64,000 bases of DNA from a virus. The stretch is taken from the IMG/VR virus record IMGVR_UViG_3300021090_000723, positions 40,904-104,903 of that record; one strand, given 5' to 3'. Below the pieces are notes generated by a model. The model saw only the letters and a program-made list of their open reading frames with translations. It had not been told where the DNA came from and did no database searches. How positions within the stretch are numbered: position 1 is the stretch's first letter; each line of letters begins with the position of its first letter. This document shows, piece by piece, positions 16,401-32,526 of this stretch. Both the position numbers and the translations under genes were made by a program.

Positions 16401-19400
16401 TCTGGTTAAGCGCATCGCGGATGAGGTCGATGCCGCGGCGCGCGATCGACTTGCCCTCGGCGCGCGAGGTCGTCCAGTTGACCGACCAGGTCTGGGTGTT
16501 GGGCGCGGTGCCCTCCTGGGCAATGCGCACGTGCCAGGTCGCTTCCTTCGGCACGTATTCAACGATGGCCTCGGTCTCGAGCAGTTCGGAAATGAACCCC
16601 TCGACGTCCGAGTTGGGAATCCACGGCGTGCCCATGCGCACCGCGATCTGAGACGGCTTCAGATCGACTGGCTGGACGACTTCGAGCGCCTTGACGTTCT
16701 CGGCCCACTCGGGCTCGCCCTTGGCAGCGTCACGCGCGAAGGCCAACTTTCCGCGCACGTTGCCCGAGAGATAGACCTCGGACGGCTCGTAGGCGCCGGT
16801 CGCCGGGTTCTTGAAGATGCGGCCCTTGAGTTCGTTGAGGAACGTGCTCGGCTGACGGCCCAGGATTTTTGCCATGTAGGGCACGTCGACTATGCCCTTC
16901 ATGTTCATGGACGCGATCAGCGCCTCGTCCGGCGTGTTCACGCGGAGGATTTCGCGCGTCGGCTCGACCACGCGATCGGTGAAGATCGGGCCTTTGATGC
17001 CCTCGTTCTTCTCTTCATCGAAGCGCTCGAGCGCGGAGACCAGCGCCGCGTCCGGATCGTCACGGAACGCCAGCATGTTCGGGTAGCGGCGGTATTCGCG
17101 CACCTCACCGTCCGGCATCGTGCGCCGGCTGATCTGAACCTGGTTGATGTAGCCGAACGCCTTGACGAACTGGGCGTAGAGTTTCCCCAGTTCCTTCTGC
17201 GGCGCGACCCACGGGGCCGTGCCCTTGCCTTCCCACTCGCCGCGCTGCGCGGTCAAGATCTCGCGGGCCTTGTCGCGGAGCCTGATGAGCAGGCGCACGC
17301 GCCCGGCCTGGCCGTCGGAGAGTTCGACCGGCACGGAGGATTGCAGCACGCGCTGGAACAGCTTGCCGTCACGTTCGAAGAAGGCGTTGTCCTTCACCGT
17401 GTCGGGCGGCGGCGCCAGGTCATCGTATGTGTCCACGTCCCCGGCCTCGGGATCGAAGCGGAGCGCGGACTTCTCCATCATGGCCTGGACGGCATTGGCG
17501 ATCTTCTCGCGCAGGCCCGTTGCCGTTCCGGTAACGGTGTATTCGTCCTCGCGGTACATGCCGCGCGTGACGGCGTTCGTCCCCAGGATCATGTTGGGGT
17601 TGTCTTTGAAATACTGATTGACCGTCGCCGGGCTCGTGCCGACGCGGAACTCCTTGGCCTCCAGCCAATCCGGCTTCCCGGCAGGCTCGCCCTCCTTCCG
17701 CTTACGGATGAACAGGATGTCCGTGACGACTTGGGTCCCGGCGTTCTCCTTGAAGGCGGTGTTGGGGAGACGGATGGCGCCGATCAGGTCGCCGCCGGCG
17801 TCCCGGATCATGGTGCGCGCGGTCTTGTCCTGCGAGTCCATCGTGTAGCGGCTGGTCACGAGCGCAAGCACGCCGCCAGGTTTGACCAGCTTCAGGCTCT
17901 TGAAGATGAAGTAGTTGTGCAGGCTGAGCGGGCGGCCCTTATTGTACATCTTGTCGGCCGGGCGAATGTCGCCGAACGGCACGTTGCCGATGACAAGGTC
18001 CACGCTGTCTTCCGGAAGCGCGGTGTCCTCGAAGCCCTGCACGAAGATGCGCGCCTCGGGGTAGAGCGCTCGCGCGATCTTGCCGGTGACGTCGTCAAGC
18101 TCCACGCCGATGAACTTCGGATCGCTGCCCTTCGGGCGCATGCCCATGAAGTTGCCGATGCCCATGCCGGGTTCGAGCACGTTGCCCGAGCCGGTGAAGC
18201 CGAGTTCGGTCACGCCGTCCCAGATGCCGCGAACCACATCCTGGCTGGTGTAGTGCGCGTTGATGGTGGTCGCGCGAGCCGACGCGAACTGCTCCGGCGT
18301 CAGCATGGCCTTCAGCTGCTCGCGGTAGGGGATCAGGCCGTAGTCGAGCCCGCGGCCCTCATCGAAGATCTTGGCGAGGCCCGTGGCGCCCCAGCCCACG
18401 TAATGGGCAAGCTGCTCCTGGTCCTCACGGCTGGCGAGTTGCCCGCCCTTCTCCAGGTCGAGAGCGACCCGGATGGCTTCGATGTTCTTGACGATGCGCT
18501 GGGCTGGACTGCCGGTGGCATAATCGGCGTCTTCAGCGATGCGGAAGTTTAGTCCTCGTATCCCCCGCTTGGCCCGATCCCCGAGGCTTCCCTCTCGCTC
18601 ATCGGGAGATACTCCCTCAGGGCGTCCGACTCCGCCATCAGGAGGGCGCTCCGCTCCAGCTTGATCCGTCTCTCCAGAGGCTCGTCCTGGCTCACTTGCG
18701 GAAGTTGGCTGTTGACCCAGTTCGCTATCGATTCCGATAGGTCCTGGACCCTCTGCTCCAGCTTCCCCTCCGCCTTCAGGCCCGCGAACTCCTGTGGTCG
18801 GTGCACCCGCAGGTGCCCTTCCACCTTGCTCCGGTAGCTTTCCGGGCTGACCTTTTGCACGTTTTTCCCTTTCGAGCTCGGCCCAGCGCTTCGGAATATC
18901 GATCTTTTTGAGCGCTTCTTCAACTGCCTGCTTGGAGTCGGGCAGCGGCGTGTAGGTCTTTTCCTTGAGCGATCCGTCCTCGTTCCACTCCAGCTGGTCG
19001 AGCAGGCCGCGCCACATCAGGGCGAAATTGGCGCGCTCTTCCTCGGCGGGATAGGGCGTGCCGCGATAGCCGGCTTCCTTGGTCGTCTGGCCTTCCGCCA
19101 CCCAGCCATTGACCAGGTAGGGCGAGGTCTGCCCCTTGGCGGCCAGTTCATCGTAGATGAAGGACTCGAACGAGCGCGCCCACAGTTCCTCGGGCCGCAC
19201 CCAGTATTTGCCAAGCTCTTGGGCGTTGCGCTTGAACTTGGTCGTGAGCTTCGCGCTCCACCCCTCGTTCTGCCAAAGGTGGTCCACGTACTGCTCGGCG
19301 GTCTTGAGCGGGCCCAGGCCTTGCCTGCCCCGGATGTGCGACCGGCCGGTGAGCAGATTGTCGACCATCTTGATCGCACCCTCCACGTCCCAGGTGTGGG

Positions 19401-22400
19401 AGAGCGTGCCGTTGACGCTTGCGAGCAGGGCGCGCGCACTCTGACCGGCGGCCAGCAGCGCCTTCTTCTCGGCCTGGAGCGGCTTGACCTTGTCGGACAA
19501 CTCCATCGAGTTGATCGTGCCCTCGCGGTTCCGCTTCACCAGCGCCTCGATCTCCTTGTCGATCGCCGGGACCCGGACGCCGCCTGCGCGCAGGTTGAAG
19601 TCGAGCGCATGGCCCCATTCGTGCGACAGGGACCCGTCGCCCTTGGTCTTGGTCAGGTTGATGACGTTGGTGTCTGGCTCGTAGTGAGCGGAGCCGAACC
19701 CAGATCCGCGCGAGCCGAACGCCAGGCCCAGCTTACCGCCGATGGAGATTGCCTTCGCTGGCACACCCATTATCTCGGCGAAGTCCATGAGCGCGTCGTA
19801 GGCGGCGTTGACGTGCGCCTGGCCCTCGCGGCCGGTGACCCAGTTCCCGAACTCGACGCCGCGGAAGCCGAAGGTCTTGCGGAAGTCCTCGGCCTTGACG
19901 TTCTTGCCCGCCTTCCGGCGCTCGGGCAGGCCCGGGCGCGTGATGTCCTCGATCCGGATGCTCGGCCGCACGAGGGGCGTGGCGCGTGTCGGCATCGTGT
20001 TGTCGTCGCGGAAGTGGGGCAGGCCTTCGTCCAGGCGCCACAGGTTCGGCCACGAATAGTGGTGCAGGTACGGCCGCAACGTCTTCTGCGCCCAGTCCGT
20101 GGCGATGACGCGCGCCGACATGCCTTCCGGGCGCTGGACCTCTTTGACGATCAGGCGCTTGAGCGCGGCGTGGATGTCCTCGACGTTCTTCGCGCCGGCG
20201 AGCGCATCGCCCAGGATCTCCATCGCGCCGATGTATTCGGCGGCGTTCTCCAGGATGGTCTCGCGCTTCTCCTCCCAGCGCTTCTCCAGCGTCTTTCTGA
20301 ACGGCGTGCGCCATTTGCCACGGCCGCCGCCCTGGTTCTTACCCTCCTGCTCGGTGAAGGTGACGAACGAGCGGGAGACGAAGTCGGCGAAGACGTGGGC
20401 GCCGGTCGTGGCGTCAGCCGCCAGGCGGGAGCGGAGGTCCCGCGCGTCCAGAGCCTGCTCGAGCATCTTGTCCAGATCCTCGATCTTCTCGACCTTGGCT
20501 TTGGCCTGGGCGCGCTTGCCCGCCATGGCCTCGCCCACGTCCGTCATCTTCGGCATGGGCGCGCGGCGGTCGGTGACCGGCTTCCTTGGTTCTTTGACCG
20601 GCCTCTTCTCGGGCGCCTCGATTGTTTCACGTGAAACATCAACGGCCTGGGGCAGAATCGCGGTGGTCGTGTCGCCCTCTTCGATCCACCGTTTGAAGTC
20701 GGCCACGTTCATTTCGAGGCCGCCGTTCTTCCGGCGCTGCGGCCCCGAGCCGTCCGAGTACCCGGCGTCATAGACCGCGATGGCCTGCTCCGGGGTGTCG
20801 ACCGCGGCGATGGCCTTGTGCTCATCGAACTTGCCGGTCTTCGGATCGTACTGATCGATGACGAAGACCTTGTCGCTCTTCAGGTTCGGTCCGAGGTAAA
20901 TGTCCAGCTTTTCCTGCTGGTTAGGCGGGGCGTTCGGCTTCGCATCCGCACCGATCGAGCGCTTGATGTAGCCGTAGTCGGCCAGGATGTTGACGTTCGT
21001 CCAGATCGGCTTGCCGTCCTCGCCCTCGGGCCCAAGGCGATCCGTGCCCTTCGGCGTCTCGATAGTGATGTCCAGGCCGTTCCAGTTCTCGATGTGGCCC
21101 TTGGCGTAATTCCCAGCCTCGCGCTGCGCCTCGGTCGTCTCCTTGGCGACCGCGTCACGCGCCGGCTGGATGTCTTCCTCGGTCTCCGGACGCTTGACGG
21201 GGTTGGTCTTGGTGCCTTCCGGCGCCCGGGCGACGTGCTTGATCTTCGCAAGCTGCTCTTTGGCGCTGGCGATGAGGCCGAGGGCGTCCCGCTTCGCAGA
21301 GTCGGGCCAGCTGCCCGACATTGCCCGCTCGACATAGCTGGTCACATAGGCCTTGGCTTCGTCCAGCGTGGCGAATTCGTTCGCGTGCGAGCCGCCCATG
21401 CCGCCCGCTTGGCTGGTGATGTTGTACGAAATGCGCGGGACCGTGTAGCGGGCCTCCTGCGGGTCGTAGACGATCATAAACGCGAGGTTGCTGCTGCTCT
21501 TCTTCGCCTTGGCCGGGAGCAGTTTGCCGGTGTCGAGCACCACTTCGCCGCGCTCCATGACGGCCTCGTGCTCGTCCCGGGCGACCTTCTCGCGCGCCCT
21601 CCGGGCGTCGTGCTCGGCATCCTCGGCGGCGCGCTGGCTTTTGGCTTCCTTGGCGATCGTCGGCCACTTGTACTCAAGGTCGGACTGCTCGGCCTTCGCC
21701 TTCGCGATGTCCACTTTGTAGCGCTCGATCTGGCTCTTCCACGTGTCGAGGTTGATCTTGGATGGCTTCTTCGGTCCCGCCAGGGCCTCGTCCATGCGCT
21801 TCTGCGTCTCGGCCATGTTGTGCTGGTAGGCCGAGAGGTGGAATTCGCGCTGGCGGTAGTCGTCCAGATCCTGCGCCATCGGATGCTCGGGGGCTTCCGG
21901 CTGCTCGCGCTCCACCAGGTAGTCGCCAATGTCCTTGACCAGGTCCGGGAACTTCTTGCCGTACCACTCCAGGCGCAGGCCCTTGGCCGCGGCGCGCGCG
22001 GCGTAGATCGACTTGTCCCAGCCCGGCTCCGGGGTGAAGCGCTCTTCCTGCGCCTCTTCCTCGGCGCGATCGGCCTCCATCTGGACGATCTCGTCCGTGG
22101 TGGGCTCCATCACGTCTTCGCCGGACTTCTCGCCGGGCGCGAGTTCGCGCGCTGGCGGGGTTATGAGACCAGGCAGCGGCTCAACGGGACCTTCGCCTTC
22201 GCGTTGCGCCATGCGCCGGGCTTCATCGGCGCGCTCATCGGCAATGCGCGTTTCCAGCGCCGCGCGCATCAGCCCGGTTTTGGTGTCGTAGTTCCGGAGG
22301 ATGTGCTCCTGGAACACATCGGCGGCTTCCACGCCGAACGAGTCGGCATAGGCGCCCCACCAGTTCACGAATTCCTCAGGGGCGGCGGTGAAGGCCTCCT

Positions 22401-24762
22401 TGGCCTCTTTATCGAGCCGGTCCTTGGCCTTGGCGTTCTTCGGCGGCTTGCCGGTGGCGGGATCGTTGCCCGAGTCGATGTAGGCCTGCGCCGCGCGCAG
22501 CTGGTTGATGGGCTCTTCGAAGTGCCGCAACGCCTCATCGTGGAAGGCGCGCAGCGTTTCGGTGCGCTCTTCCGGCGTCTCGGCCGGGTTCTCGTCCCAG
22601 AAGCCGGGGCGTCCGGCTTCGCGCAGCGCTTCATCCGCAGGCTCGGGGAACGTCTTCTTGAAGTCGAAGGGCAGTCGTTTGCCGCTCGACTTCTTGCCCT
22701 TTTCCTTGGCGAGATCGGCGGCCTCGCGCTCGATCTGGGCCATTTCCGCCTCGACGTCCTGGGCGGGCTTGGTGCCCGGCACGGTGAACGTCTCCTTGGG
22801 CGGCGTCTCCCTGATCCATTCCTCACTAGGCTCACCTGGCGGCTGGGTGAGATCGGCGCGCTTGACGTCGCCGGTCTTCACGTTGTGCCAGCCGATCTGG
22901 TTGTCCTCTTCGTCGAAGAGCGCTTGCCAGTCCTTGCCACGGGGCTTGGGCGGCATTTCTGCCTTCGGCGGCTGGGTTGGTGGCTTGGGCGGTGGCTCTG
23001 GAGCCTGTTCGGCCGCACCCGCTGGCGGCTCTCCTGGCGCGCCTGGGCGCTCCATCGTGGGCTCGACGCGCGGCTTTTCCGGCTCGCCCTCGCCCCGGAC
23101 GAACGGGTGCGTGGCCGCCGCGATCGTGCCGCCCATCACGCCGCCGGTGAGGCCCGCGGCGATCACTGCGCGGGTGGCTTCACCGAACGTCATCTTCTCG
23201 TTCAGGATGCCCATGGAATAGCCGGTCTGGAGCACCTGGGTGAACATTTCCTGGATGCCTTCGGCGCCTGCCGCCTTGAGCGTGCGCGGCAGGAACTTCC
23301 CGCCCTCCTTGATGATGATCCCGAGCGGGATTTTCTCGCCGGCTGTTTCGGCGAAGGCCATGAACGCGCCGTCGAGCGCGGCCTGGGTGGGCGAGCGGCC
23401 GTTCTTGGCGGACTCGCTGTACTGCTCCAGGCCGACCTGGCTTCCCATCATGGCGAGGCCGATGGCCGGGCTTCTGGTCAGGATGGACGCGCCGACGGTC
23501 GCCAGCATGGGCACGCCGGACTCGATGGCGTTGAAGTAGACACCCTTGATGCTGAGTGGATCGAGGTCTTTCGGGGCGCTCTCCTCGAGATCCTTGAGCG
23601 CGGCGAAGGCGATCTTGCCGCCGATGGTGCTGCCAGCGTCCTTGACCGCCTTCTCGCGCGCGGCGAGCATGCCCTGGTACGCCTCTTCGACCTGTGGCGG
23701 CAGCTTGCCGGTGAACGGATTGACCTGTTCGATCGGATAAGGGACCGGGGCCTGGTCCATGGCGAGAATCGCGCCGCCGATCATGTTCTTCAGGTGCAGC
23801 GGCACGCGCTCGGCGGCCGCCATGGTCAGTTCACCGAAGCTGGGCCCGGGGTCCTTCTTGCCGATGCCCGCGATGAACGCGCGCGCCGCGCCGGCGCCGA
23901 CGCCTTCCACGTCGGGTTGCTCGATGGGCTTGAACGGCTTCTGTTTGGCCGCGAACGCCTCGGCGGCCGCGGGCGTCTCGAACTTGCCCATGTGCTGGCC
24001 GGTCTGCTTGTAGCGCTCGATGATCGCTTCGTCTGACTCGCCCTCGGTCAGCTGCGGGAGCACGGTCTCCTTGAAGATGCCGTTCTCCGTGAACTCGAAC
24101 GAGCGCGTGCCCGCAAAGTCGCCCTTGTAGTTGCCCGGTTCGAGCAGGCCCGGCTCCTGGCGCACGAAGTCCGGCTTGTCAGCGACCGCCTGCGGCGCAG
24201 CGGTGATCGGCTCTTCGGAAACGATCGCATACGGATCATCGCCGCCGGGCGGCGCAGCGGAGATCGCCGTCGGGTCGATCGGCTCTTCGGAAACGATGGC
24301 ATACGGGTCGTCCTGCGGCCCCTGAGACATTTGGACCACGCGCTGGACGTAGTCGTTCGTCTCCGGGAACGGGATCTGGGCGATGAACTCGGCTTCGCTG
24401 ATCTCGCCCTTGCGCGGATCGCCCAGGCGGTTGAGCCAGCCTTCGAGCGCGCCCGGGCCAGCGTTGTAGGCCGCACCCGCGAGCGCCGGGCTTCCATAGC
24501 GCTCAAGCATGGCGGCCGCATAGTCGACGCCTACGCGGTCAAGCTCTTCCGGAGTGTCGTTCGCCGCCGGGCGGACGCCAAAGCCCGGGTCCTTCGCGGT
24601 GCCCGGCATAACCTGCATTTCGGAGCGCGCGCCCTTGGGAGAGACCGCGTTGATCGGGCTCGCTTCCGCGCGCCGGATGATGCTGGGGAAATCGACAGGC
24701 GTGGGCGCGAGCCCTCCGCCGTCCATCGGTTCTTCCGAGACGACGTCCCATTCGTTGACCAT
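7462..24762 (-). CDS. Giant polyvalent virion ejection protein (5766 aa): SLT, InPase, LPD1, DarB-like N6-MTase plus SNF2 helicase, JAB-like, HExxH, LPD38
   Basis: AVSPKGA..MQVMPGTA/AAYNAGPG; EAGNYAKGH..FDEHK; FRGVEFGNW..HEWGH; LEPGMGIG/GNVPF; HLVGAGKT/DEAH/TGTPISN/QREGRIERQGN; HHNH..S..D; HEVIH; VNFNRRG..FYNASIQG. Confidence 0.92.
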   Translation of the reverse strand: MVNEWDVVSEEPMDGGGLAPTPVDFPSIIRRAEASPINAVSPKGARSEMQVMPGTAKDPGFGVRPAANDTPEELDRVGVDYAAAMLERYGSPALAGAAYNAGPGALEGWLNRLGDPRKGEISEAEFIAQIPFPETNDYVQRVVQMSQGPQDDPYAIVSEEPIDPTAISAAPPGGDDPYAIVSEEPITAAPQAVADKPDFVRQEPGLLEPGNYKGDFAGTRSFEFTENGIFKETVLPQLTEGESDEAIIERYKQTGQHMGKFETPAAAEAFAAKQKPFKPIEQPDVEGVGAGAARAFIAGIGKKDPGPSFGELTMAAAERVPLHLKNMIGGAILAMDQAPVPYPIEQVNPFTGKLPPQVEEAYQGMLAAREKAVKDAGSTIGGKIAFAALKDLEESAPKDLDPLSIKGVYFNAIESGVPMLATVGASILTRSPAIGLAMMGSQVGLEQYSESAKNGRSPTQAALDGAFMAFAETAGEKIPLGIIIKEGGKFLPRTLKAAGAEGIQEMFTQVLQTGYSMGILNEKMTFGEATRAVIAAGLTGGVMGGTIAAATHPFVRGEGEPEKPRVEPTMERPGAPGEPPAGAAEQAPEPPPKPPTQPPKAEMPPKPRGKDWQALFDEEDNQIGWHNVKTGDVKRADLTQPPGEPSEEWIRETPPKETFTVPGTKPAQDVEAEMAQIEREAADLAKEKGKKSSGKRLPFDFKKTFPEPADEALREAGRPGFWDENPAETPEERTETLRAFHDEALRHFEEPINQLRAAQAYIDSGNDPATGKPPKNAKAKDRLDKEAKEAFTAAPEEFVNWWGAYADSFGVEAADVFQEHILRNYDTKTGLMRAALETRIADERADEARRMAQREGEGPVEPLPGLITPPARELAPGEKSGEDVMEPTTDEIVQMEADRAEEEAQEERFTPEPGWDKSIYAARAAAKGLRLEWYGKKFPDLVKDIGDYLVEREQPEAPEHPMAQDLDDYRQREFHLSAYQHNMAETQKRMDEALAGPKKPSKINLDTWKSQIERYKVDIAKAKAEQSDLEYKWPTIAKEAKSQRAAEDAEHDARRAREKVARDEHEAVMERGEVVLDTGKLLPAKAKKSSSNLAFMIVYDPQEARYTVPRISYNITSQAGGMGGSHANEFATLDEAKAYVTSYVERAMSGSWPDSAKRDALGLIASAKEQLAKIKHVARAPEGTKTNPVKRPETEEDIQPARDAVAKETTEAQREAGNYAKGHIENWNGLDITIETPKGTDRLGPEGEDGKPIWTNVNILADYGYIKRSIGADAKPNAPPNQQEKLDIYLGPNLKSDKVFVIDQYDPKTGKFDEHKAIAAVDTPEQAIAVYDAGYSDGSGPQRRKNGGLEMNVADFKRWIEEGDTTTAILPQAVDVSRETIEAPEKRPVKEPRKPVTDRRAPMPKMTDVGEAMAGKRAQAKAKVEKIEDLDKMLEQALDARDLRSRLAADATTGAHVFADFVSRSFVTFTEQEGKNQGGGRGKWRTPFRKTLEKRWEEKRETILENAAEYIGAMEILGDALAGAKNVEDIHAALKRLIVKEVQRPEGMSARVIATDWAQKTLRPYLHHYSWPNLWRLDEGLPHFRDDNTMPTRATPLVRPSIRIEDITRPGLPERRKAGKNVKAEDFRKTFGFRGVEFGNWVTGREGQAHVNAAYDALMDFAEIMGVPAKAISIGGKLGLAFGSRGSGFGSAHYEPDTNVINLTKTKGDGSLSHEWGHALDFNLRAGGVRVPAIDKEIEALVKRNREGTINSMELSDKVKPLQAEKKALLAAGQSARALLASVNGTLSHTWDVEGAIKMVDNLLTGRSHIRGRQGLGPLKTAEQYVDHLWQNEGWSAKLTTKFKRNAQELGKYWVRPEELWARSFESFIYDELAAKGQTSPYLVNGWVAEGQTTKEAGYRGTPYPAEEERANFALMWRGLLDQLEWNEDGSLKEKTYTPLPDSKQAVEEALKKIDIPKRWAELEREKRAKGQPGKLPEQGGRAPAGAPTTGVRGPEGGGEAGAEGPGPIGIDSELGQQPTSASEPGRASGETDQAGAERPPDGGVGRPEGVSPDEREGSLGDRAKRGIRGLNFRIAEDADYATGSPAQRIVKNIEAIRVALDLEKGGQLASREDQEQLAHYVGWGATGLAKIFDEGRGLDYGLIPYREQLKAMLTPEQFASARATTINAHYTSQDVVRGIWDGVTELGFTGSGNVLEPGMGIGNFMGMRPKGSDPKFIGVELDDVTGKIARALYPEARIFVQGFEDTALPEDSVDLVIGNVPFGDIRPADKMYNKGRPLSLHNYFIFKSLKLVKPGGVLALVTSRYTMDSQDKTARTMIRDAGGDLIGAIRLPNTAFKENAGTQVVTDILFIRKRKEGEPAGKPDWLEAKEFRVGTSPATVNQYFKDNPNMILGTNAVTRGMYREDEYTVTGTATGLREKIANAVQAMMEKSALRFDPEAGDVDTYDDLAPPPDTVKDNAFFERDGKLFQRVLQSSVPVELSDGQAGRVRLLIRLRDKAREILTAQRGEWEGKGTAPWVAPQKELGKLYAQFVKAFGYINQVQISRRTMPDGEVREYRRYPNMLAFRDDPDAALVSALERFDEEKNEGIKGPIFTDRVVEPTREILRVNTPDEALIASMNMKGIVDVPYMAKILGRQPSTFLNELKGRIFKNPATGAYEPSEVYLSGNVRGKLAFARDAAKGEPEWAENVKALEVVQPVDLKPSQIAVRMGTPWIPNSDVEGFISELLETEAIVEYVPKEATWHVRIAQEGTAPNTQTWSVNWTTSRAEGKSIARRGIDLIRDALNQKSTVISWQDSEGKTHTDMNATIVAQEKQNDIKERFSKWIWKDPERGARLSRFYNDNFNNLRVATFNGDHLTLPGSSSTIELRSTQKKAVWRYLVSGNTLLDHLVGAGKTFTAIAAAMEAKRIGLLSKPLFSVPNHMLEQFSREFMQLYPNASILVADERAFAGDNRRRFVARAAAGNWDAIIMTHSSFERVGMSAKFQADYIRDEIAEYADLIRAARETDTGGRSPTVKQLEAAKKRREEKLRELMQAKDKDRGLSFEEMGVDGIFVDEAHLFKNLEFATKITNMNPPSSQRAFDLYLKTKYIDKMTPGRGLMFMTGTPISNSMAEMYTMQRYLQPRGLAERGLSHFDAWASTFGDTVTQAEITPEGGKAMLKTRFARFRNIPELISMYRQFSDLVSKDDLIATGQVKLPKISGGGPKTIIVPASDALKAYIAEIGERAEAVRKREVTPDEDNMLLISTDGRKASLDLRVVDPAARKEKVRKASEVASNAARIYKAGAKEKHTQIIFCDMSVPSNVAYSIYRDIKEELVKKGVNANDVAFVQDANTDQKKANLFADVRAGRKRILLGSTEKMGIGTNVQDRLKALHHVDPSWRPSDIEQREGRIERQGNTNEEIDLFRYVTEGSFDAYMWQTVERKARFINQIKRGDPSVREAEDIDEQVLSFAEAKALAAGNPLILDKAKADSDVDRLSRLRGAHYDNIHEMEWQIHRLPGEIAGMEEARGRVKADHAAYLERKDKPHYTILGTVYEKRVDASKALADIIEKAWNLQKSKNEAQGRKRNAEIEDIPIGKMYGFPISVEVDGYYQPQAVIHGKMTDKVELDLQSLKLGAISRIENFFKSRPGEIDYRQAKIDTAKKKLVDFKELVKVPFEREDQYQAALKRQRKIDQALGLIEADPQPVAGAPEPDLPPRRSAGFILSEAPGEGLGLAPPARPPRDEGMLARRIVEGNSDLADDLGKFVAKKKAKTPAAVNVAIGDWLRAFGERTKTEAAVAYDPATQTVIAAETSGKDTYVNLRGKIEDALSKPDARIVFHHNHTMPYGLSFADLTLLDLPGLDWMIAHTTEGQWHAARLTPETRRAFADLDLTLWSSPSDILNKMLQESQNAQGRVGRSLIRERGLDRNLAVANFSHNFAVGLARAGLIDYRSSVVVPESLAATFDTMAQAGAEAIASPLKAIGVVNVSDRGTAPTQFADGIAEILGEDQGLAVEPRGGAGEGARPEGVGRGLERLRLPQAPPVIETGDGVTFTFSPEFEAKREQLAADLRAYLVNRNLPLAVRVADAIADPEGHEADGHFDITKNLITIALDTKDPFGTITHEVIHGLRNLGFFTKSEWATLEAAAKDKWKRTFDIVGKYYKPDVQTEETIAFAAQNYEPSNEFAKAGLATKVLQRVRNFFEGLRNFFRGRGFQTPEDIFKRIESGRIGKRGKAGPTRSEAKFALKPQPPAPFFSTLARTIEASKQEKASGIQWQAFIKNARGITKDETEWTGVNEWLESQQGPVTKQALLDFIRENNVQIEEVEKGRAPGDDEGPYPENIEDWLPDEERTIQPEGQRYYSEMAFDADDASVTFHYDQRGVVTRVNAIRAGRELGDFGDFIEAREAIHRDAGIVAEGGATKFESQTLPGGENYRELLLTLPQIGVPFDPAKVRIERNRRSTTQGDVTVFYGDHKVGTWDDPIVLNSVTKKYEGPNDAHWIDVMRRRYPGDRSLAIDALSGQFRSGHFDEANILAHVRFKDRADADGKRVLFIEEIQSDWHQKGRRQGYSVKETRSPVFSIFDDQGELVGTRPTLDQAQEFIRDKHGRRPAWNRDDQAPMDTTNWTIKEGEAIEKRTGVPDAPFKSTWHEIALKRMLRYAAENGYDRLAWTTGAQQAERYNLAKHVNSLRLTDNVSGGIGRPRMDGPFERGHLIAYGKRNEEAINRQIESRDDLAELVGAELADKLLAVTPVEGRSAGLGVRVREISGLDLTVGGEGMKGFYDRIVPQFLNRYAKKWDAKVGTTKIDTGKESEPSWTVAETHPQKKQGVIDVHSLDVTPAMRESVMEGQGLFARRMPPGANAFTMFTDSPQPSVVDYLRNSNLSLMERLKGAASLSAINASFDKWRVGFQDRYLKVARMQAAIEQMLGRPLTEEENAYLAEELSSGRKGAKLEDLFERQIRPLVLAMHERGISREELETFLYARHAPERNARINEINPKFREEGIAGSGMSDEDARGIMDEVDKTGRRADFDALAGMVDDVLAFALNTRVEAGLMSEEQAEAWRATYRDYVPLRGVAELDPEVEADRPRPGKGFDVKGKESHRAFGRQSPARDILAYAFMQAEEAIIRGENNRIGNAIYELAKAAPNENFWKVDKVAMRPVWIKARQEVQYWPVRRILAEDAPYTLSTKIDGQEHRITFNRNNPVARDLAQGLKGLGQDQISLLIRNFGAINRILSHVNTTLNPEFVITNAFRDAQTALSNIQAHGDIKGITKGTVKDYRKALVASSRSAFKAEPGKTLMPWMAKDQAEWDRWAQEFRENGGRVYFNQMEDVLELRKRLDGQMREIGTSKLNPIMAMKTLGRIIENTNIGVENAIRLSAYKNARERGFTPAKAASLAKNLTVNFNRRGSWGPLMNSLYLFYNASIQGTATLLTAWKSPRVRKVAAFAVLTGFLLDFLNAFVSDEDDDGQLLYDKVTPFDKSRNLIVMTPSEGGVAAKIPLPYGYNIFYGVGRSIAEVMRGKDPLESAGNLAITIMDSFNPVGGAQNLLNMIAPTTMDPVVDLFMNKDYAGRPIAPEQSQYGPQVPNSQRYWNSVSPAYKAVTDFLSTASGGTGVEPGLIEISPEWLDYGFGVAWGAAGTFYERNFLDLPMKFADPTSTITFNDIPFVRRVVTSKPPWIDKATFYERINKIEQSRAYARDYQREGRRPEARGFVQENRAMLSLYNDANNARTELSEIRASRAQAKMALEQGRMARPRYNEQVRILNEAEERIIRMFNAEYLERTRRRP
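12717..12866 (-). CDS. Overprinted 49-aa ORF (MYLIEEPPPLSS...) in the +1 frame of the giant gene
   Basis: GGAG SD 6 nt upstream of ATG; helical protein-like sequence; the giant frame is a low-complexity linker here. Confidence 0.55.
   Translation of the reverse strand: MYLIEEPPPLSSPMALRRFLARTKDLPSSPEVEQARARAQKALEEALKD
18549..18860 (-). CDS. Overprinted ~103-aa TnpV-like ORF in the +1 frame of the giant gene
   Basis: AAGGG SD then GTG; HLRVHRPQEFAGLKAEGKL..MAESDALREYL resembles the TnpV pattern; the giant frame is a G/P/E linker here. Confidence 0.55.
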   Translation of the reverse strand: MQKVSPESYRSKVEGHLRVHRPQEFAGLKAEGKLEQRVQDLSESIANWVNSQLPQVSQDEPLERRIKLERSALLMAESDALREYLPMSEREASGIGPSGGYED

Positions 24763-29312: not shown

Positions 29313-29337
29313 AACGAGACGGTGACGATGCGAAAGG

Positions 29338-29412
29338 TGGCAGCTGCTGAGGGAGTCGAACCCTACGTCCCCGGAGTCAAAGTCCGGTGCCCTACCGTTA
29401 GACCAAGCAGCC
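29338..29412 (-). tRNA. tRNA-Gln(TTG)
   Basis: Cloverleaf; loop CTTTGAC; CCA encoded. Confidence 0.92.
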
Positions 29413-29413
29413 G

Positions 29414-29489
29414 TGGCGCGCCCAGGGGGAGTCGAACCCTCCGTTTGCCGATTGAGAATCGGCGTTCCTGACCGTTAGAAGATGGGCGC
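29414..29489 (-). tRNA. tRNA-Glu(CTC)
   Basis: Loop TTCTCAA; CCA encoded. Confidence 0.92.
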
Positions 29490-29491
29490 AT

Positions 29492-29565
29492 TGGCGCAGC
29501 TGCGGGGAATCGAACCCCGGTTGTCGGAGTGAAAATCCGCTCTCCGGCCACTAGAGGACAGCTGC
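29492..29565 (-). tRNA. tRNA-Glu(TTC)
   Basis: Loop TTTTCAC; CCA encoded. Confidence 0.92.
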
Positions 29566-29568
29566 GAT

Positions 29569-29642
29569 TGGCGAGGGTGCGACGAATCGAACGCCGGTCA
29601 TCGGGTTTGGAAGCCGAGGCCCTACCACTGGGCGACACCCCC
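29569..29642 (-). tRNA. tRNA-Trp(CCA)
   Basis: Loop TTCCAAA; G73; C31-C39 mismatch. Confidence 0.85.
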
Positions 29643-29647
29643 TGAAG

Positions 29648-29721
29648 TGGTGCGGACGGAGAGGATCGAACTCTCACCCCCGGGTTGGAAGCCCGGTACT
29701 CTGCCGTAGAGCTACGTCCGC
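29648..29721 (-). tRNA. tRNA-Gly(TCC)
   Basis: Loop CTTCCAA; A73; CCA encoded. Confidence 0.92.
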
Positions 29722-29722
29722 G

Positions 29723-29793
29723 TGCGGGTCGCCGGAATCGAACCGGCATCAGCGGAGTGGCACTCCGCGGCCCAGCCAATAGACCAGACCCGC
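29723..29793 (-). tRNA. tRNA-Gly(GCC)
   Basis: Loop GTGCCAC; no encoded CCA. Confidence 0.88.
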
Positions 29794-29798
29794 AAAAA

Positions 29799-29873
29799 TG
29801 GACATGCGCGCCGGAATCGAACCGGCTCATCGCGATTTTGCAGACCGCCGCGTTCCCACCTCGCCCGCGCATG
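29799..29873 (-). tRNA. tRNA-Cys(GCA)
   Basis: Loop CTGCAAA; U73; CCA encoded. Confidence 0.9.
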
Positions 29874-29916
29874 CAAGCATCCAGTTCAGTTTGCGAAATT
29901 TCGATATTTCGATATT

Positions 29917-29990
29917 TGGCGACCCCACATGGATTTGAACCACGATTTCCAGAGTCAGAGTCTGGCGGCCTACCGTTGGCCGATGGAGCC
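29917..29990 (-). tRNA. tRNA-Gln(CTG)
   Basis: Loop CTCTGAC; CCA encoded. Confidence 0.92.
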
Positions 29991-29997
29991 TTGGAAA

Positions 29998-30074
29998 TGG
30001 TTGCGGGGGTCGGAATCGAACCGACGACGCCTGCGCCTTCAACGCAGCGCTCTACCGGACTGAGCTACCCCGCC
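29998..30074 (-). tRNA. tRNA-Phe(GAA)
   Basis: Loop TTGAAGG; CCA encoded. Confidence 0.92.
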
Positions 30075-30092
30075 AAGAGGCAGCGCGTTGGC

Positions 30093-30140
30093 TTATCGCC
30101 AACAACCTCGTTCGGGAAATCGTTGCTGTCGATTGAGCAT
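30093..30140 (-). CDS. Leader peptide D, MLNRQQRFPERGCWR (precedes the Phe/Gln/Cys/Gly/Trp/Glu tRNAs)
   Basis: Codons match the downstream tRNAs; 4 CGA; TAA lies in the loop of the GTTGGC/GCCAAC hairpin. Confidence 0.75.
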   Translation of the reverse strand: MLNRQQRFPERGCWR

Positions 30141-30145
30141 GCCAA

Positions 30146-30220
30146 TGGCTGCGGAGGACGGGCTCGAACCGCCGACCTCGCACTTAACAGGCGCTCGCTC
30201 TACCACTGAGCTACTCCGCA
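30146..30220 (-). tRNA. tRNA-Asn(GTT)
   Basis: Loop CTGTTAA; G73; CCA encoded. Confidence 0.92.
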
Positions 30221-30263
30221 CTGCCGTCTCCATTGGTTGGCCCACCAGGTGGGCGAGGCGCCG

Positions 30264-30292
30264 GTTTTGTCAACCGGGCCCCGAAATGTCAA
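30264..30292 (-). promoter_or_regulatory. Putative sigma70 promoter for the Asn/leader D block
   Basis: Two TTGACA hexamers (30292-30287 and 30273-30268); weak -10. Confidence 0.45.
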
Positions 30293-30305
30293 GCAGAGTG
30301 TAAAG

Positions 30306-30381
30306 TGGCGTCCCCGGTAGGAATCGAACCCACGTCTGGCCGGATTAGAAGTCCGGTGCCTTTCCGCTAGGCTACGGGGAC
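30306..30381 (-). tRNA. tRNA-Arg(TCT)
   Basis: Loop CTTCTAA; CCA encoded. Confidence 0.92.
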
Positions 30382-30383
30382 GT

Positions 30384-30458
30384 TGGAGGACCAGGCGGGG
30401 CTCGAACCCGCAACCGTTCGATTAAAAGTCGACTGCACCACCATCGTGCTGCTGGTCC
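30384..30458 (-). tRNA. tRNA-Lys(TTT)
   Basis: Loop CTTTTAA; CCA encoded. Confidence 0.9.
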
Positions 30459-30459
30459 G

Positions 30460-30531
30460 TGAACCGGGTGGGACTTGAACCCACAACCATCGGATTAAGA
30501 GTCCGCCGCACCACCATCGTGCTGCCGGTTC
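30460..30531 (-). tRNA. tRNA-Lys(CTT)
   Basis: Loop CTCTTAA; no encoded CCA. Confidence 0.88.
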
Positions 30532-30562
30532 AAAACGATCGCCGACTATAGTCGGCGGAAGT

Positions 30563-30637
30563 TGGCGTGCGCGGAGGGAGTCGAACCCACAGCTTCCAGA
30601 TTCGTAATCTGGCGCTCTTCCGTTGAGCTTCGCGCAC
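30563..30637 (-). tRNA. tRNA-Arg(ACG)
   Basis: Loop TTACGAA; CCA encoded. Confidence 0.92.
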
Positions 30638-30641
30638 AAAC

Positions 30642-30716
30642 TGGCGTTCCCGGGTGGATTCGAACCACCGCCCTTCAGATCCGGAATCTGACGCTCCTCC
30701 GCTGAGCCACGGGAAC
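30642..30716 (-). tRNA. tRNA-Arg(CCG)
   Basis: Loop TTCCGGA; CCA encoded. Confidence 0.92.
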
Positions 30717-30746
30717 AAGTCAAAAATCGCCACATCTGACGTAAAC

Positions 30747-30821
30747 TGGCGCGCGTTAGGGGTATCGAACCCCTGACCTTCCGGTTGACAACCGGGTGCT
30801 CTCCCTCTGAGCTAAACGCGC
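30747..30821 (-). tRNA. tRNA-Asp(GTC)
   Basis: Loop TTGTCAA; G73; CCA encoded. Confidence 0.92.
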
Positions 30822-30825
30822 AGTC

Positions 30826-30902
30826 TGGTCGCAGGGGCTGGGATCGAACCAGCGCATGACGCCCTTATGAGGGGCGGGCCTTTCCAGCTTGGCTACCCTG
30901 CG
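30826..30902 (-). tRNA. tRNA-Met(CAT), elongator (Ile2 not excluded)
   Basis: Loop CTCATAA; positions 1 and 72 paired. Confidence 0.85.
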
Positions 30903-30974
30903 TCGTTCTGGATGGTCTCGAACCACCGTCCTCACGATTATCGGTCGCGCGCTCTACCACTGAGCTACAGAACG
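30903..30974 (-). tRNA. tRNA-Ile(GAT)
   Basis: Loop CCGATAA (C33); no encoded CCA; abuts tRNA-Met. Confidence 0.88.
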
Positions 30975-30978
30975 TCAT

Positions 30979-31053
30979 TGGTACGCGCAGAGGGGATCGA
31001 ACCCACCGTTTCCGGGTCCACAACCCAGCGTCCTTCCATTGGACGATGCGCGC
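30979..31053 (-). tRNA. tRNA-His(GTG), type lacking G-1
   Basis: Loop TTGTGGA; G1-U72; A73; C at position -1. Confidence 0.9.
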
Positions 31054-31057
31054 GAAT

Positions 31058-31134
31058 TGGTCTGAGCGGCAGGATTCGAACCTGCGTGTACCTGGTCCCA
31101 AACCAGGTGCGTGACCAGGCTACGCTACGCTCAG
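31058..31134 (-). tRNA. tRNA-Pro(TGG)
   Basis: Loop TTTGGGA; CCA encoded. Confidence 0.92.
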
Positions 31135-31139
31135 GAAAA

Positions 31140-31216
31140 TGGTCGCCCCTGCACGGAATCGAACCTGCGACCTCCCGGGTGTAGGCCGGGCACTCTACCA
31201 GCTGAGCTAAGGGGCG
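31140..31216 (-). tRNA. tRNA-Val(TAC)
   Basis: Loop CCTACAC (C33); CCA encoded. Confidence 0.9.
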
Positions 31217-31268
31217 GCGCGGTGAACGGGGGAGCGGGCGTGGGCCCGCGGTGAGGGACGAGGTCGCC

Positions 31269-31346
31269 TTAGGCGACGACTATCCTATGCGGTCGAATGG
31301 ACATTCGCCGCTTTCTTGGATCTCGTGGTTTGAGAACCGTGCTCAT
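31269..31346 (-). CDS. Leader peptide C, MSTVLKPRDPRKRRMSIRPHRIVVA (precedes the Val/Pro/His/Ile/Met/Asp/Arg/Lys tRNAs)
   Basis: Codons match the downstream tRNAs; TAA forms the loop of GTCGCC/GGCGAC; promoter directly upstream. Confidence 0.8.
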   Translation of the reverse strand: MSTVLKPRDPRKRRMSIRPHRIVVA

Positions 31347-31354
31347 GGCCGGGG

Positions 31355-31383
31355 TGTATGACGGATCATCTTGTTGTCGTCAA
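31355..31383 (-). promoter_or_regulatory. sigma70-like promoter for leader C
   Basis: TTGACG-17nt-CATACA, 8 nt before the ATG (near-leaderless). Confidence 0.6.
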
Positions 31384-31391
31384 CAACGTGA

Positions 31392-31478
31392 TGGTCGGAG
31401 CGGAGGGATTCGAACCCTCTAGCCGCAAGCGGACCGGATTTACAGTCCGGCGCAACCCACCGTCTTTGCCGCGCTCCG
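31392..31478 (-). tRNA. tRNA-Tyr(GTA)
   Basis: Loop CTGTAAA; long variable arm; CCA encoded. Confidence 0.92.
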
Positions 31479-31514
31479 TATATCAAACAGGCCGTTTCGG
31501 TATACGTTTGAGAT

Positions 31515-31596
31515 TGGTAGGCCCGGAGAGATTTGAACTCTCACGCCGAGGCGCCTGCTTCTGAGGCAGGTGTGTCTGCCGTTCCACCACGGGCCC
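31515..31596 (-). tRNA. tRNA-Leu(CAG)
   Basis: Loop CTCAGAA; CCA encoded. Confidence 0.92.
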
Positions 31597-31598
31597 AC

Positions 31599-31675
31599 TG
31601 GTAGGCGCGGAGAGACTCGAACTCTCAGATGTCGGGATTTAACGCCGATGCGTCTGCCGATTCCGCCACGCGCCC
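31599..31675 (-). tRNA. tRNA-Leu(TAA) with a short variable region
   Basis: Loop GTTAAAT; Leu-type D arm; A73; 5-nt variable loop. Confidence 0.82.
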
Positions 31676-31682
31676 GAGAAGC

Positions 31683-31724
31683 TCAGGCAAGTCGTAAGGT
31701 GCGGTATCGTAGGTTCGTGCGCAT
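31683..31724 (-). CDS. Leader peptide B, MRTNLRYRTLRLA (precedes the Leu/Leu/Tyr tRNAs)
   Basis: GAAGGA SD; CTA, TAC, TTA and CTT codons; 2 CGA. Confidence 0.72.
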   Translation of the reverse strand: MRTNLRYRTLRLA

Positions 31725-31734
31725 GCGATCCTTC

Positions 31735-31763
31735 TTGCATTTCCCCGCGCGGCTGTCTACAGA
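31735..31763 (+). promoter_or_regulatory. sigma70-like promoter for leader A (in the divergent region)
   Basis: TTGCAT-17nt-TACAGA, 9 nt before the ATG. Confidence 0.55.
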
Positions 31764-31772
31764 GCGGCCACC

Positions 31773-31835
31773 ATGTTCCGAACGCGAACCACTCGAGCGG
31801 CACGAGCCGCAACACGATCAAGTTCCTCTTCCTGA
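31773..31835 (+). CDS. Leader peptide A, MFRTRTTRAARAATRSSSSS (precedes the Ser/Ser/Ala/Thr tRNAs)
   Basis: All four Thr codons, three Ala codons and four Ser codons are sampled; 5 CGA; stop lies 3 nt before tRNA-Ser. Confidence 0.82.
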   Translation: MFRTRTTRAARAATRSSSSS

Positions 31836-31838
31836 TAC

Positions 31839-31926
31839 GGAAGGGTGGCAGAGTGGTTTATTGCGGCGCACTGCTAACGCGCCGGACCTGAAGGTCCCGT
31901 AGGTTCGAATCCTATCCCTTCCGCCA
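31839..31926 (+). tRNA. tRNA-Ser(GCT)
   Basis: Loop CTGCTAA; long variable arm; G73; CCA encoded. Confidence 0.93.
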
Positions 31927-31931
31927 ATCTC

Positions 31932-32020
31932 GGATGGGTCCGCTGCGTGGGCGGCAACCGGCTTCGAATACCGGCATGGGGTCCGTCAGGGCAGGGGTTC
32001 AACTCCTCACCCATCCGCCA
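31932..32020 (+). tRNA. tRNA-Ser(CGA), atypical (possible 8/4 fold)
   Basis: Loop TTCGAAT; GGATGGGT/ACCCATCC acceptor; long variable region; G73; CCA encoded. Confidence 0.75.
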
Positions 32021-32039
32021 ATCTTCCAGATCAGGATAA

Positions 32040-32114
32040 GGGCTCGTAGCTCAGCGGGAGAGCACCGGCTTTGCATACCGGGTGTCGTGGGTTCGATTCC
32101 CACCGGGTCCACCA
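32040..32114 (+). tRNA. tRNA-Ala(TGC)
   Basis: G3-U70; loop TTTGCAT; CCA encoded. Confidence 0.93.
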
Positions 32115-32124
32115 GTTTGGAAAT

Positions 32125-32201
32125 GCCGGCGTAGCTCAGATGGTAGAGCAGTGTCTTTGTAATTCACAGGTCGCGGGTTCGAGTCCTCGCCGCCGGCTCC
32201 A
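32125..32201 (+). tRNA. tRNA-Thr(TGT)
   Basis: Anticodon TGT; CCA encoded. Confidence 0.92.
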
Positions 32202-32205
32202 AACC

Positions 32206-32526
32206 TCACCCGAGGGTGCAGATCGTGAATCGACCGCGCTTCGAGAACAGCTGCTTGGTCGCGTCCGTGTACCGCAGCTGGACGTGCCAGTTACCGGCTT
32301 GATCGAGTTGTCCGATGGTGAAGGTGTAGGTCACATACTCGTTGGGGAGGAACGTGCCGACCTCCGTCACGATTTCGAGCGCGCCCAGTTCCACGGCGGG
32401 GTTGGTCACCACCAGCGTGGTGTTGTCCGGCTTGGTGAAGGTGAGTTCGAGCCCGGTGAAGGCTGACATATCGTAGCCGACACCGAAGCGGATCTGGACG
32501 CCGAAACTACCAACGAAAATGGTCAT
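32206..32526 (-). CDS. BppU-N/Ig-like virion protein
   Basis: FTKPD..YTF..LDQAGNW.VQL pattern. Confidence 0.7.
   Translation of the reverse strand: MTIFVGSFGVQIRFGVGYDMSAFTGLELTFTKPDNTTLVVTNPAVELGALEIVTEVGTFLPNEYVTYTFTIGQLDQAGNWHVQLRYTDATKQLFSKRGRFTICTLG

Follow-up and report, generated by a model that had tools for sequence, protein, structure and literature searches.

Recurrent in-frame CGA codons in short leader reading frames ahead of blocks of tRNA genes in an uncultured soil phage

The tRNA array and its leaders

The IMG/VR virus record IMGVR_UViG_3300021090_000723, 104,903 nucleotides (nt) long and 64.6 % GC, comes from an uncultured soil phage. Positions 40,904 to 104,903 of this record, a stretch of 64,000 nt that is referred to here as the window, contain a large array of tRNA genes in which four very short open reading frames (mini-ORFs A to D, called leaders below) each head one block of tRNAs. 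Each leader runs from an ATG to a stop codon, and 14 of their 73 sense codons in total are CGA, an arginine codon that the genes of the phage rarely use. Leaders punctuated by CGA are shared by this phage, other uncultured high-GC phages and copies in Inquilinus-type genomes, and the codon may serve to set the pace of ribosomes on translated sensor leaders.

According to ARAGORN the array comprises 28 tRNA genes at 29338-32201, 4 on the plus and 24 on the minus strand, and covers every one of the 20 amino acids. An Rfam search of this region matched the tRNAs alone and gave no match in the spacers. The features, in positions of the window, are:

31839..32201, plus strand, block A: tRNA-Ser(gct), Ser(cga), Ala(tgc) and Thr(tgt) (ARAGORN)
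31773..31835, plus strand, leader A: 20 sense codons and TGA; 3 nt from the stop to tRNA-Ser(gct)
31779-81, 31785-87, 31794-96, 31803-05 and 31815-17, plus strand: the five in-frame CGA codons of leader A (codons 3, 5, 8, 11 and 15)
31725..31772, no strand: 48-nt divergent stretch separating the start codons of B and A, with -35-like hexamers and no Shine-Dalgarno sequence
31683..31724, minus strand, leader B: 13 sense codons and TGA; 7 nt from the stop to tRNA-Leu(taa)
31709-07 and 31694-92, minus strand: the two in-frame CGA codons of leader B (codons 6 and 11), which also has two CGC codons and one out-of-frame CGA
31392..31675, minus strand, block B: tRNA-Leu(taa), Leu(cag) and Tyr(gta) (ARAGORN)
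31269..31346, minus strand, leader C: 25 sense codons and TAA; stop in a hairpin loop, 52 nt before tRNA-Val
31325-23, 31307-05 and 31295-93, minus strand: the three in-frame CGA codons of leader C (codons 8, 14 and 18), which also has AGA, CGG and AGG
30306..31216, minus strand, block C: tRNA-Val, Pro, His, Ile, Met, Asp, Arg(ccg), Arg(acg), Lys(ctt), Lys(ttt) and Arg(tct) (ARAGORN)
30563..30637, minus strand: tRNA-Arg(ACG), anticodon loop U33-A34-C35-G36
29338..30220, minus strand: tRNA-Asn, leader D, then block D with tRNA-Phe, Gln(ctg), Cys, Gly, Gly, Trp, Glu, Glu and Gln(ttg) (ARAGORN)
30093..30140, minus strand, leader D: 15 sense codons and TAA; ATG 5 nt past tRNA-Asn, stop 18 nt before tRNA-Phe
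30131-29, 30122-20, 30110-08 and 30098-96, minus strand: the four in-frame CGA codons of leader D (codons 4, 7, 11 and 15), the last abutting the stop; one further CGA is out of frame

The peptides mirror the tRNAs that follow them. With arginine set aside, 13 of the 14 residues of leader A belong to the set that block A serves (Ser, Ala and Thr), and 4 of the 8 in leader B are Leu or Tyr, those of block B. The corresponding figures are 13 of 18 for leader C and block C, and 7 of 10 for leader D and the block D set of Phe, Gln, Cys, Gly, Trp and Glu. Since the peptides agree in composition with the tRNAs of their block (combined P = 3e-11 over the four leaders) and all the amino acids of each block occur in its leader, the four ORFs are not arbitrary frames. 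In leader C the arginine codons (CGA, AGA, CGG and AGG) themselves match the three tRNA-Arg genes of the block.

The frame of leader D stays open backwards through tRNA-Asn into the spacer at 30221-30305, giving an ORF of 50 amino acids at 30093-30245. This 85-nt spacer, on the minus strand upstream of tRNA-Asn, contains two TTGACA hexamers and has no leader of its own.

CGA enrichment and reading frame

The first-pass annotation of this DNA had counted five CGA codons in leader A, two in B, three in C and four in D, spaced 2-6 codons apart, and a recount agrees. It had also supposed that the large genes rely on CGC and CGG. In 87 phage ORFs filtered by the GC content of third codon positions (GC3), which amount to 25,948 codons, these two indeed make up 52 % and 23 % of the arginine codons, followed by CGT (8.5 %), AGG (7.9 %), CGA (5.7 %) and AGA (2.6 %). 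CGA occurs at 4.35 per 1000 codons (0.44 %) in these genes and at 19 % in the leaders, a 44-fold excess (P = 3e-19). Among the arginine codons of the leaders, 14 of 19 are CGA (P = 4e-14 against the gene value and P = 6e-8 against a uniform one in six).

The excess is also evident at the level of trinucleotides: CGA has a genome-wide frequency of 2.9 % (P = 3e-8 for the leaders against it), and with the per-position values for the tRNAs (2.3 %) or for the spacers outside the leaders (2.1 %) as reference, P stays at about 3e-8. The leaders contain 16 CGA trinucleotides, 14 of them in the reading frame (P = 1e-5); the two that are not, in leaders B and D, went unmentioned in the earlier annotation. 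Control mini-ORFs beside tRNA blocks at other high-GC loci have 1.1 % CGA and 9 % arginine codons, and none reaches 13 % CGA.

Leaders in related phages and in Inquilinus

A scan with the 5' end of tRNA-Ser(gct) returned 119 phage loci, and every mini-ORF beside a tRNA block was scored blind; the pattern used skews the resulting leader sample to modules in which tRNA-Ser comes first. The leaders of the window came out at the top together with those of L184, of L153/L185/L229 and of L224/L201. L184 has a Leu/Ser leader with all six Leu codons ahead of Ser, Leu, Leu, Leu and Ser tRNAs, the L153/L185/L229 leader stands ahead of Ser and Gln tRNAs, and the Lys-rich leader of L224/L201 precedes four tRNA-Lys. 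Moreover, more distant members of the phage group of the window have a small group of tRNAs where the window has its array, headed in each case by a mini-ORF built alike: a Ser/Thr-rich leader ahead of Ser, Ser and Thr tRNAs in L025/L026, and a Leu-rich leader ahead of two Leu tRNAs in L036. The L025 and L036 leaders have a promoter-like region and their first three codons in common and diverge exactly where the cargo differs.

CGA is present in the leaders of L025/L026, L036, L184, L153/L185/L229/L248 and L224. In agreement with the test that the first-pass annotation set for homologous leaders, the codon is in frame (9 of 10 trinucleotides) and enriched (19 of 28 arginine codons, see below); in the genes of the L025 and L036 phages CGA makes up 6-7 % of the arginine codons. 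The view that a shared signature marks the four ORFs as one family is borne out as well. CGA is used alike by relatives whose complete genomes encode 2-5 tRNAs and no tRNA-Arg, and the codon is therefore not tied to a phage-supplied tRNA-Arg.

A Leu-Arg(CGA)-Tyr-Arg motif is common to leader B and the leaders of L036, L153, L185, L229 and L248. The L248 leader equals that of L185 minus two Gln codons, removed by an in-frame gap of 6 nt, and its block has tRNA-Ser(tga) and no tRNA-Gln. In seven Inquilinus-type genomes the same leader start is found before a weak tRNA-Ser-like and a tRNA-Tyr-like gene. The arginine before Tyr is CGA in 10 of 11 copies from the L153-family phages (n = 4) and Inquilinus (n = 7), with the adjacent Tyr and His codons varying synonymously, and the reading frame is kept in all 11. 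At two further arginine sites of the L153 family CGA is found in 4 of 4 and 3 of 4 copies.

An L153-type pattern in which the wobble base of the arginine codons was left free gave no new members, its chance matches in long ORFs having CGG, CGT or CGC and never CGA. The promoter-plus-ATG pattern of L025/L036 recovered three known contigs only, and none of the cultured phages in INPHARED has the leader A/B module of the window or the L153 module. A mini-ORF between tRNA-Gly and tRNA-Leu in L023/L035 was considered as a leader and dropped, as it shows no cognate enrichment. The architecture itself extends further: phiCbK and six relatives have a mini-ORF whose residues correspond to the tRNAs that follow.

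Several smaller observations concern these leaders. The Inquilinus-type cassette (L259 5950-6230, and also L263, L268, L305, L314, L316 and L332) has a 14-codon leader homologous to that of L229, followed 2 nt past its stop by the tRNA-Ser-like gene, which scores 27 bits and so falls below the Rfam threshold, and then by the tRNA-Tyr-like gene (31.7 bits). It may be a prophage remnant or an accessory tRNA cassette of the host. The spacer between tRNA-Ser(gct) and tRNA-Gln(ttg) of L153/L185/L229 holds a second conserved ORF of 10 codons, located 50 nt before tRNA-Gln, with one in-frame CGA, one synonymous difference and no Gln codon. Upstream of tRNA-Ser(gct) in L235 and L241, a very short Met-Ser-Ser-Arg(CGA)-Ser-Ser frame enters the tRNA-Ser without a stop, and in L133 a stretch of the Met-Ser-Ser-Arg type is offset by one base, with its CGA out of frame. 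Finally, the Glu/Asp leader of phiCbK (L366 782-844) starts with Met-Thr-His-Leu-Leu-Thr-Arg-Tyr and those of L229 and Inquilinus with Met-Thr-His-Ala-Leu-Arg-Tyr, a resemblance from which the tRNA leaders of alphaproteobacterial phages may share an ancestry.

Codon classes and their placement

The codons of the high-GC leaders fall into distinct classes. Cognate (test) codons, i.e. those for the tRNAs behind the leader, are spread evenly across the four third bases (GC3 0.45), whereas the non-cognate filler codons are gene-like (GC3 0.88; Fisher P = 3e-5 between the two). Because of this contrast, CGA is not a by-product of relaxed codon usage. Arginine is encoded either by the rare CGA or by the optimal CGC: eight independent high-GC leaders, with the arginine codons of leader C left aside, have 19 CGA, 9 CGC and no CGG, AGA or AGG, where the single CGG of L248 does not appear because L248 is counted together with its family. 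The 19 of 28 correspond to P = 2e-17 against gene usage and 2e-6 against 25 %. The absence of CGG, AGA and AGG, which form one third of the arginine codons in genes, has P = 1e-5.

Two post hoc tests concern placement. CGA-CGA pairs do not occur in the nine leaders (permutation P = 0.025), one CGA-CCG pair being found in leader C. A cognate codon directly follows 19 of the 21 CGA codons and 3 of the 8 CGC codons (permutation P = 0.04).

Decoding of CGA

In most bacteria CGA is decoded only by tRNA-Arg(ICG), by means of a purine-purine I:A pair. The tRNA-Arg set of the phage consists of (ACG), (CCG) and (TCT); the lack of a tRNA-Arg(TCG), first remarked on for the array, extends to the whole record. 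The tRNA-Arg(ACG) is thus the sole phage tRNA able to read CGA, once A34 has been converted to inosine, and its U33-A34-C35-G36 corresponds to the core that bacterial TadA requires in its substrate. A pattern search of three Inquilinus genomes found no tRNA-Arg(TCG), the ACG version of the pattern finding tRNA-Arg(ACG) in all three.

Inhibitory CGA codon pairs were reportedly described in yeast by Letzring in 2010 and by Gamble in 2016. In the Salmonella his leader, CGA codons that were introduced experimentally stall ribosomes and cause de-attenuation, while CGC and CGU, which share their tRNA with CGA, are faster (Chevance et al. 2014, PMC4046918). Structural consequences have been seen in yeast, where an I:A pair occupying the P site deforms the codon in the A site so that the next codon is poorly decoded, a defect that extra tRNA rescues in part (Tesina et al., bioRxiv 10.1101/755652).

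Promoters, terminators and RNA structure

Read from the sequence, leaders A, B and C have -35-like hexamers 29-32 nt before their start codons, no Shine-Dalgarno sequence is visible, and the same 29-nt spacing from hexamer to ATG occurs in L025 and L036. A strict consensus sigma-70 scan of the region returned no promoter. These features weakly suggest that the starts of leaders A and B are likely leaderless. Terminator-like hairpins with T runs are confined to the inside of block C (30557-30540 and 30741-30728, minus strand), and their count is no higher than in shuffled sequences. The two hairpins sit in spacers of 31 nt and 30 nt before tRNA-Lys(ctt) and tRNA-Arg(ccg).

Leader C has GC hairpins without a U tract, in a region that is strongly structured (z about -4). 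In the predicted fold of leader A, the 3' end of the leader pairs with the 5' acceptor strand of tRNA-Ser (z = -2.85), and the 3' ends of the L153-family leaders are likewise complementary to the 5' acceptor strand of tRNA-Ser. Synonymous replacement of CGA in silico shifts the folding energy (minimum free energy, MFE) in no consistent direction, and on this ground avoidance of structure was ruled out as the reason for an arginine codon ending in A. An extended motif around CGA was rejected since the flanking bases vary, and a TaqI-like TCGA site since T precedes only 3 of the 14 CGA codons.

A separate element is found at 29874-29916 (minus strand), where the 43-nt AT-rich spacer between tRNA-Cys and tRNA-Gln(ctg) contains a tandem ATATCGAA repeat. 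Its ATATCGA core recurs at the Arg-Tyr-Arg codons of the L036 and L229 leaders. The repeat is a possible protein-binding or promoter element.

A programmed slow codon?

We tentatively favour the reading that CGA is a programmed slow step of I:A wobble which would set the transit time of ribosomes through translated sensor leaders. The four mini-ORFs would be translated, probably leaderless members of a family of codon-matched ORFs that head phage tRNA blocks, each composed of a few gene-like fillers, of synonymously spread test codons for the tRNAs behind it and of regularly dispersed arginines. Translation is consistent with the in-frame position of CGA (23 of 26 trinucleotides over all these leaders), with an in-frame indel of two codons that tracks the cargo and with the preserved frame of the 11 copies. 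In bacteria without tRNA-Arg(UCG), CGA depends on the inefficient I:A wobble of tRNA-Arg(ICG), and each occurrence would then impose an intrinsic slow step that is founded in chemistry and independent of tRNA scarcity. Together these steps would set the ribosome occupancy of the leader against the time in which the first tRNA is made and folds. While occupied by a ribosome, the leader could be kept from trapping this tRNA as it emerges, whose 5' acceptor strand is predicted to be able to pair with the leader 3' end. CGA, which almost always stands directly 5' of a test codon, may in addition make the decoding of that codon more responsive to the amount of its tRNA when the I:A pair is in the P site.

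The first-pass annotation had likewise described CGA as a pacing brake that tunes the coupling of ribosome and RNA polymerase. The brake gains credit from the enrichment and frame of the codon, from its retention while neighbouring codons vary and from the his leader precedent (PMC4046918); the coupling to RNA polymerase is a conjecture.

A number of observations weigh against this reading. Close relatives swap CGA for CGC and once for CGG, and the placement tests given above are post hoc, with P values of only about 0.03-0.04. The terminator scan detected none between leaders A, B or D and their first tRNA, and the pairing of leader and tRNA is significant for A and C and not for B and D. In the Dolichocephalovirinae (phiCbK, Rogue, BL10, Kikimora and CcrPW), a leader before Phe, Val, Ile, Ile, Val, Gln and Gln tRNAs keeps 4-7 dispersed arginines, which from phiCbK to the Brevundimonas phage Kikimora are encoded by CGT, CGC and CGG, with a lone CGA in CcrPW; a second phiCbK leader, of 45 codons and located before Pro, Pro, Lys and further tRNAs, has no arginine at all. 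Since these leaders show no preference for CGA, slow CGA codons are not a universal need of tRNA leaders. Judged by the sequences compared, dispersed arginine is the wider trait and the preference for CGA is specific to the lineages of the window phage, the soil phages and Inquilinus.

A more elaborate version, which we consider doubtful, would make CGA a purpose-built sensitiser of the test codons. The I:A pair in the P site would weaken decoding in the A site, and the dwell time on the following test codon would come to depend steeply on how much of its tRNA is present. The leaders, as leaderless ORFs of 13-25 codons, would then form a multi-channel gauge of tRNA supply with control over whether the precursor tRNA behind them matures or survives. 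Under this version, CGA should be used by lineages with hosts that lack tRNA-Arg(UCG), and different brakes by other lineages.

Selection could also act on the arginine residue, its dispersed positive charge slowing or anchoring the nascent chain in the exit tunnel or interrupting hydrophobic runs, with CGA as a mere habit of the lineage. A role for arginine in the nascent peptide had been put forward in the first-pass annotation, and it gains weight from the phiCbK-type leaders, whose arginine positions are conserved over deep divergence. Within the L153 family, too, arginine sites accept CGC and CGG yet remain arginine; the residue accounts for 28 of the 61 non-cognate codons in the high-GC leaders, and the Lys-rich leader of L224 is likewise polybasic. 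What the residue alone fails to predict is the codon, namely 19 CGA among 28 with no CGG, AGA or AGG beside fillers that follow gene usage (GC3 0.88; CGA 6 % of arginine codons in genes), or the retention of CGA amid synonymous changes of its neighbours; nor does it suit the phiCbK leader that lacks arginine. We regard this explanation as unlikely, if the likeliest of the alternatives.

Somewhat less likely still is that CGA is itself a test codon, through which all leaders would monitor tRNA-Arg(ICG), arginine or inosine status and the four blocks would receive a common input. In leader C, where CGA stands beside AGA, AGG and CGG and the block has tRNA-Arg(ACG), (TCT) and (CCG), the codon is indeed cognate, the arginine codons of A, B and D are all CGA or CGC and hence read by tRNA-Arg(ICG), and CGA is non-optimal, as test codons are. 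The relatives that use it in the same manner and have no tRNA-Arg do not fit such a role, and dispersion together with the avoidance of CGA-CGA would be unusual for a starvation sensor. Classical leaders have runs of the sensed codon.

It is improbable that the CGA triplets act as nucleic acid, by contacts of RNA or DNA with a protein or as pairing elements (a near-palindrome at Arg-Tyr-Arg, or the UCG of T-loops), with the frame being incidental. A CGA-TAY-CGA core is palindromic in L036 and L229, ATATCGA is part of the AT-rich tandem repeat of the array, and in a predicted hairpin of leader C one CGA codon pairs with another. The frame is difficult to reconcile with this idea, as are the free substitution by CGC and spacers without an Rfam match. 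The repeated RNA motif for a binding protein that the earlier annotation had offered as an alternative is weakened in particular, because the 2-5 copies lie at irregular multiples of three, have no common flanking bases and can be swapped synonymously with no consistent effect on the fold. Triplet binding of the TRAP type involves 9-11 triplets at a regular spacing of 2-3 nt, as opposed to 2-5 CGA separated by 3-15 nt, of which 14 of 16 in the window are in one frame.

That the leaders are untranslated frames picked as interesting from high-GC non-coding DNA, where arginine-rich frames are common (random frames at 65 % GC would contain roughly 14 % Arg by a composition-based estimate, and the frames were chosen by eye), is highly improbable in view of the low CGA and Arg contents of the control mini-ORFs, the recurrence of the signature in independently found leaders of other phages and bacteria, and the gap in L248 that removes Gln codons exactly where the tRNA-Gln is missing.

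Relation to known leader peptides

By analogy, the arrangement would resemble attenuation by a leader peptide into which a slow codon has been programmed. The trpL, hisL, leuL, thrL, ilvL and pheL attenuators resemble the leaders of the window in having a short 5' ORF rich in sensed codons and hairpins that overlap the end of the ORF. However, they control biosynthetic enzymes, while the window leaders head tRNAs, have no Shine-Dalgarno sequence and sample with their test codons many amino acids and many synonymous codons. Leaders A, B and D share the enrichment in cognate codons with trpL and hisL and lack a terminator of that kind. To our knowledge, punctuation by programmed rare codons is not a described feature of classical leader-peptide attenuators. 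No paper connecting tRNA arrays with leader peptides, and none on CGA punctuation, was found in the searchable literature.

The Salmonella his leader provides a close precedent, in that ribosomes slow down at a CGA within the leader peptide and the output of the attenuator changes, but there the codon was put at His positions by the experimenters (PMC4046918), whereas in the window it is natural, recurrent and dispersed and has tRNA genes behind it. In mycobacteria, leaderless short ORFs with poly-Cys stretches are ribosome-based sensors in which a stalled ribosome remodels the downstream RNA (Canestrari et al., bioRxiv 10.1101/834739). These ORFs sense one amino acid by a run of Cys codons and unmask the ribosome binding site of a protein gene; in comparison, the window leaders have tRNAs downstream and interspersed, putatively slow Arg codons. 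The yeast CGA pairs involve the reading of CGA by I:A wobble alone and poor decoding of the next codon, as would apply in the present case. They are eukaryotic, deleterious and counter-selected, whereas in the window CGA-CGA is avoided and single CGA codons precede test codons. The phiCbK-type leaders match their tRNAs by the same architecture, but they precede annotated terminators and contain arginine with no preference for CGA, where the window leaders abut tRNAs and prefer it.

The main value of CGA punctuation may lie in the larger, undescribed system of tRNA leaders that it makes accessible to synonymous mutations. CGA locked in frame is independent evidence that the mini-ORFs are read codon by codon and strengthens the case for regulation of phage and bacterial tRNA genes by leader peptides. 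A synonymous exchange of CGA for CGC keeps the peptide and would separate effects of decoding speed from those of the peptide; combined with a start codon knockout or a frameshift that retains CGA, it would separate effects of an RNA motif as well. Should CGA prove to be a brake or sensitiser, this would be a natural case in which a specific wobble pair serves a ribosome-based sensor as kinetic design element, and such an element could be useful for engineered sensors of tRNA or translation status.

Surroundings of the array

The nearest of the relatives compared, L082, has a neighbouring gene 84 % identical to that of the window. At L082 8753-9710, flanked by conserved virion genes, an ORF of 264 amino acids and lower GC content replaces the array (window 29323-32208). 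As L082 has a protein gene in this slot, the tRNA array is a cargo insertion between window positions 29322 and 32209 and has no direct orthologue in L082. More distant relatives of 60-65 kb have 0-2 tRNAs each, and the terminase gave a single match, at 27 %.

Arg-X-Arg (or Lys) triplets are found in most leaders (A, B and C, L025, L036, L184 and the L153 family) and are expected by chance at about 25 % Arg; the Arg-X-Arg motif is familiar from macrolide-dependent arrest peptides. Among the tRNAs, tRNA-Val (31140-31216) and tRNA-Tyr (31392-31478) have C1:G72 as their first pair and tRNA-Asn (30146-30220) has U1:A72, and the CCA end is encoded in every tRNA whose 3' end was read. Elsewhere in the window, the virion gene cluster includes a single ORF of 5,766 amino acids (7462-24762, minus strand), and a nicotinamide phosphoribosyltransferase gene is located at 4-2034 on the plus strand (PHROG E = 5e-183).

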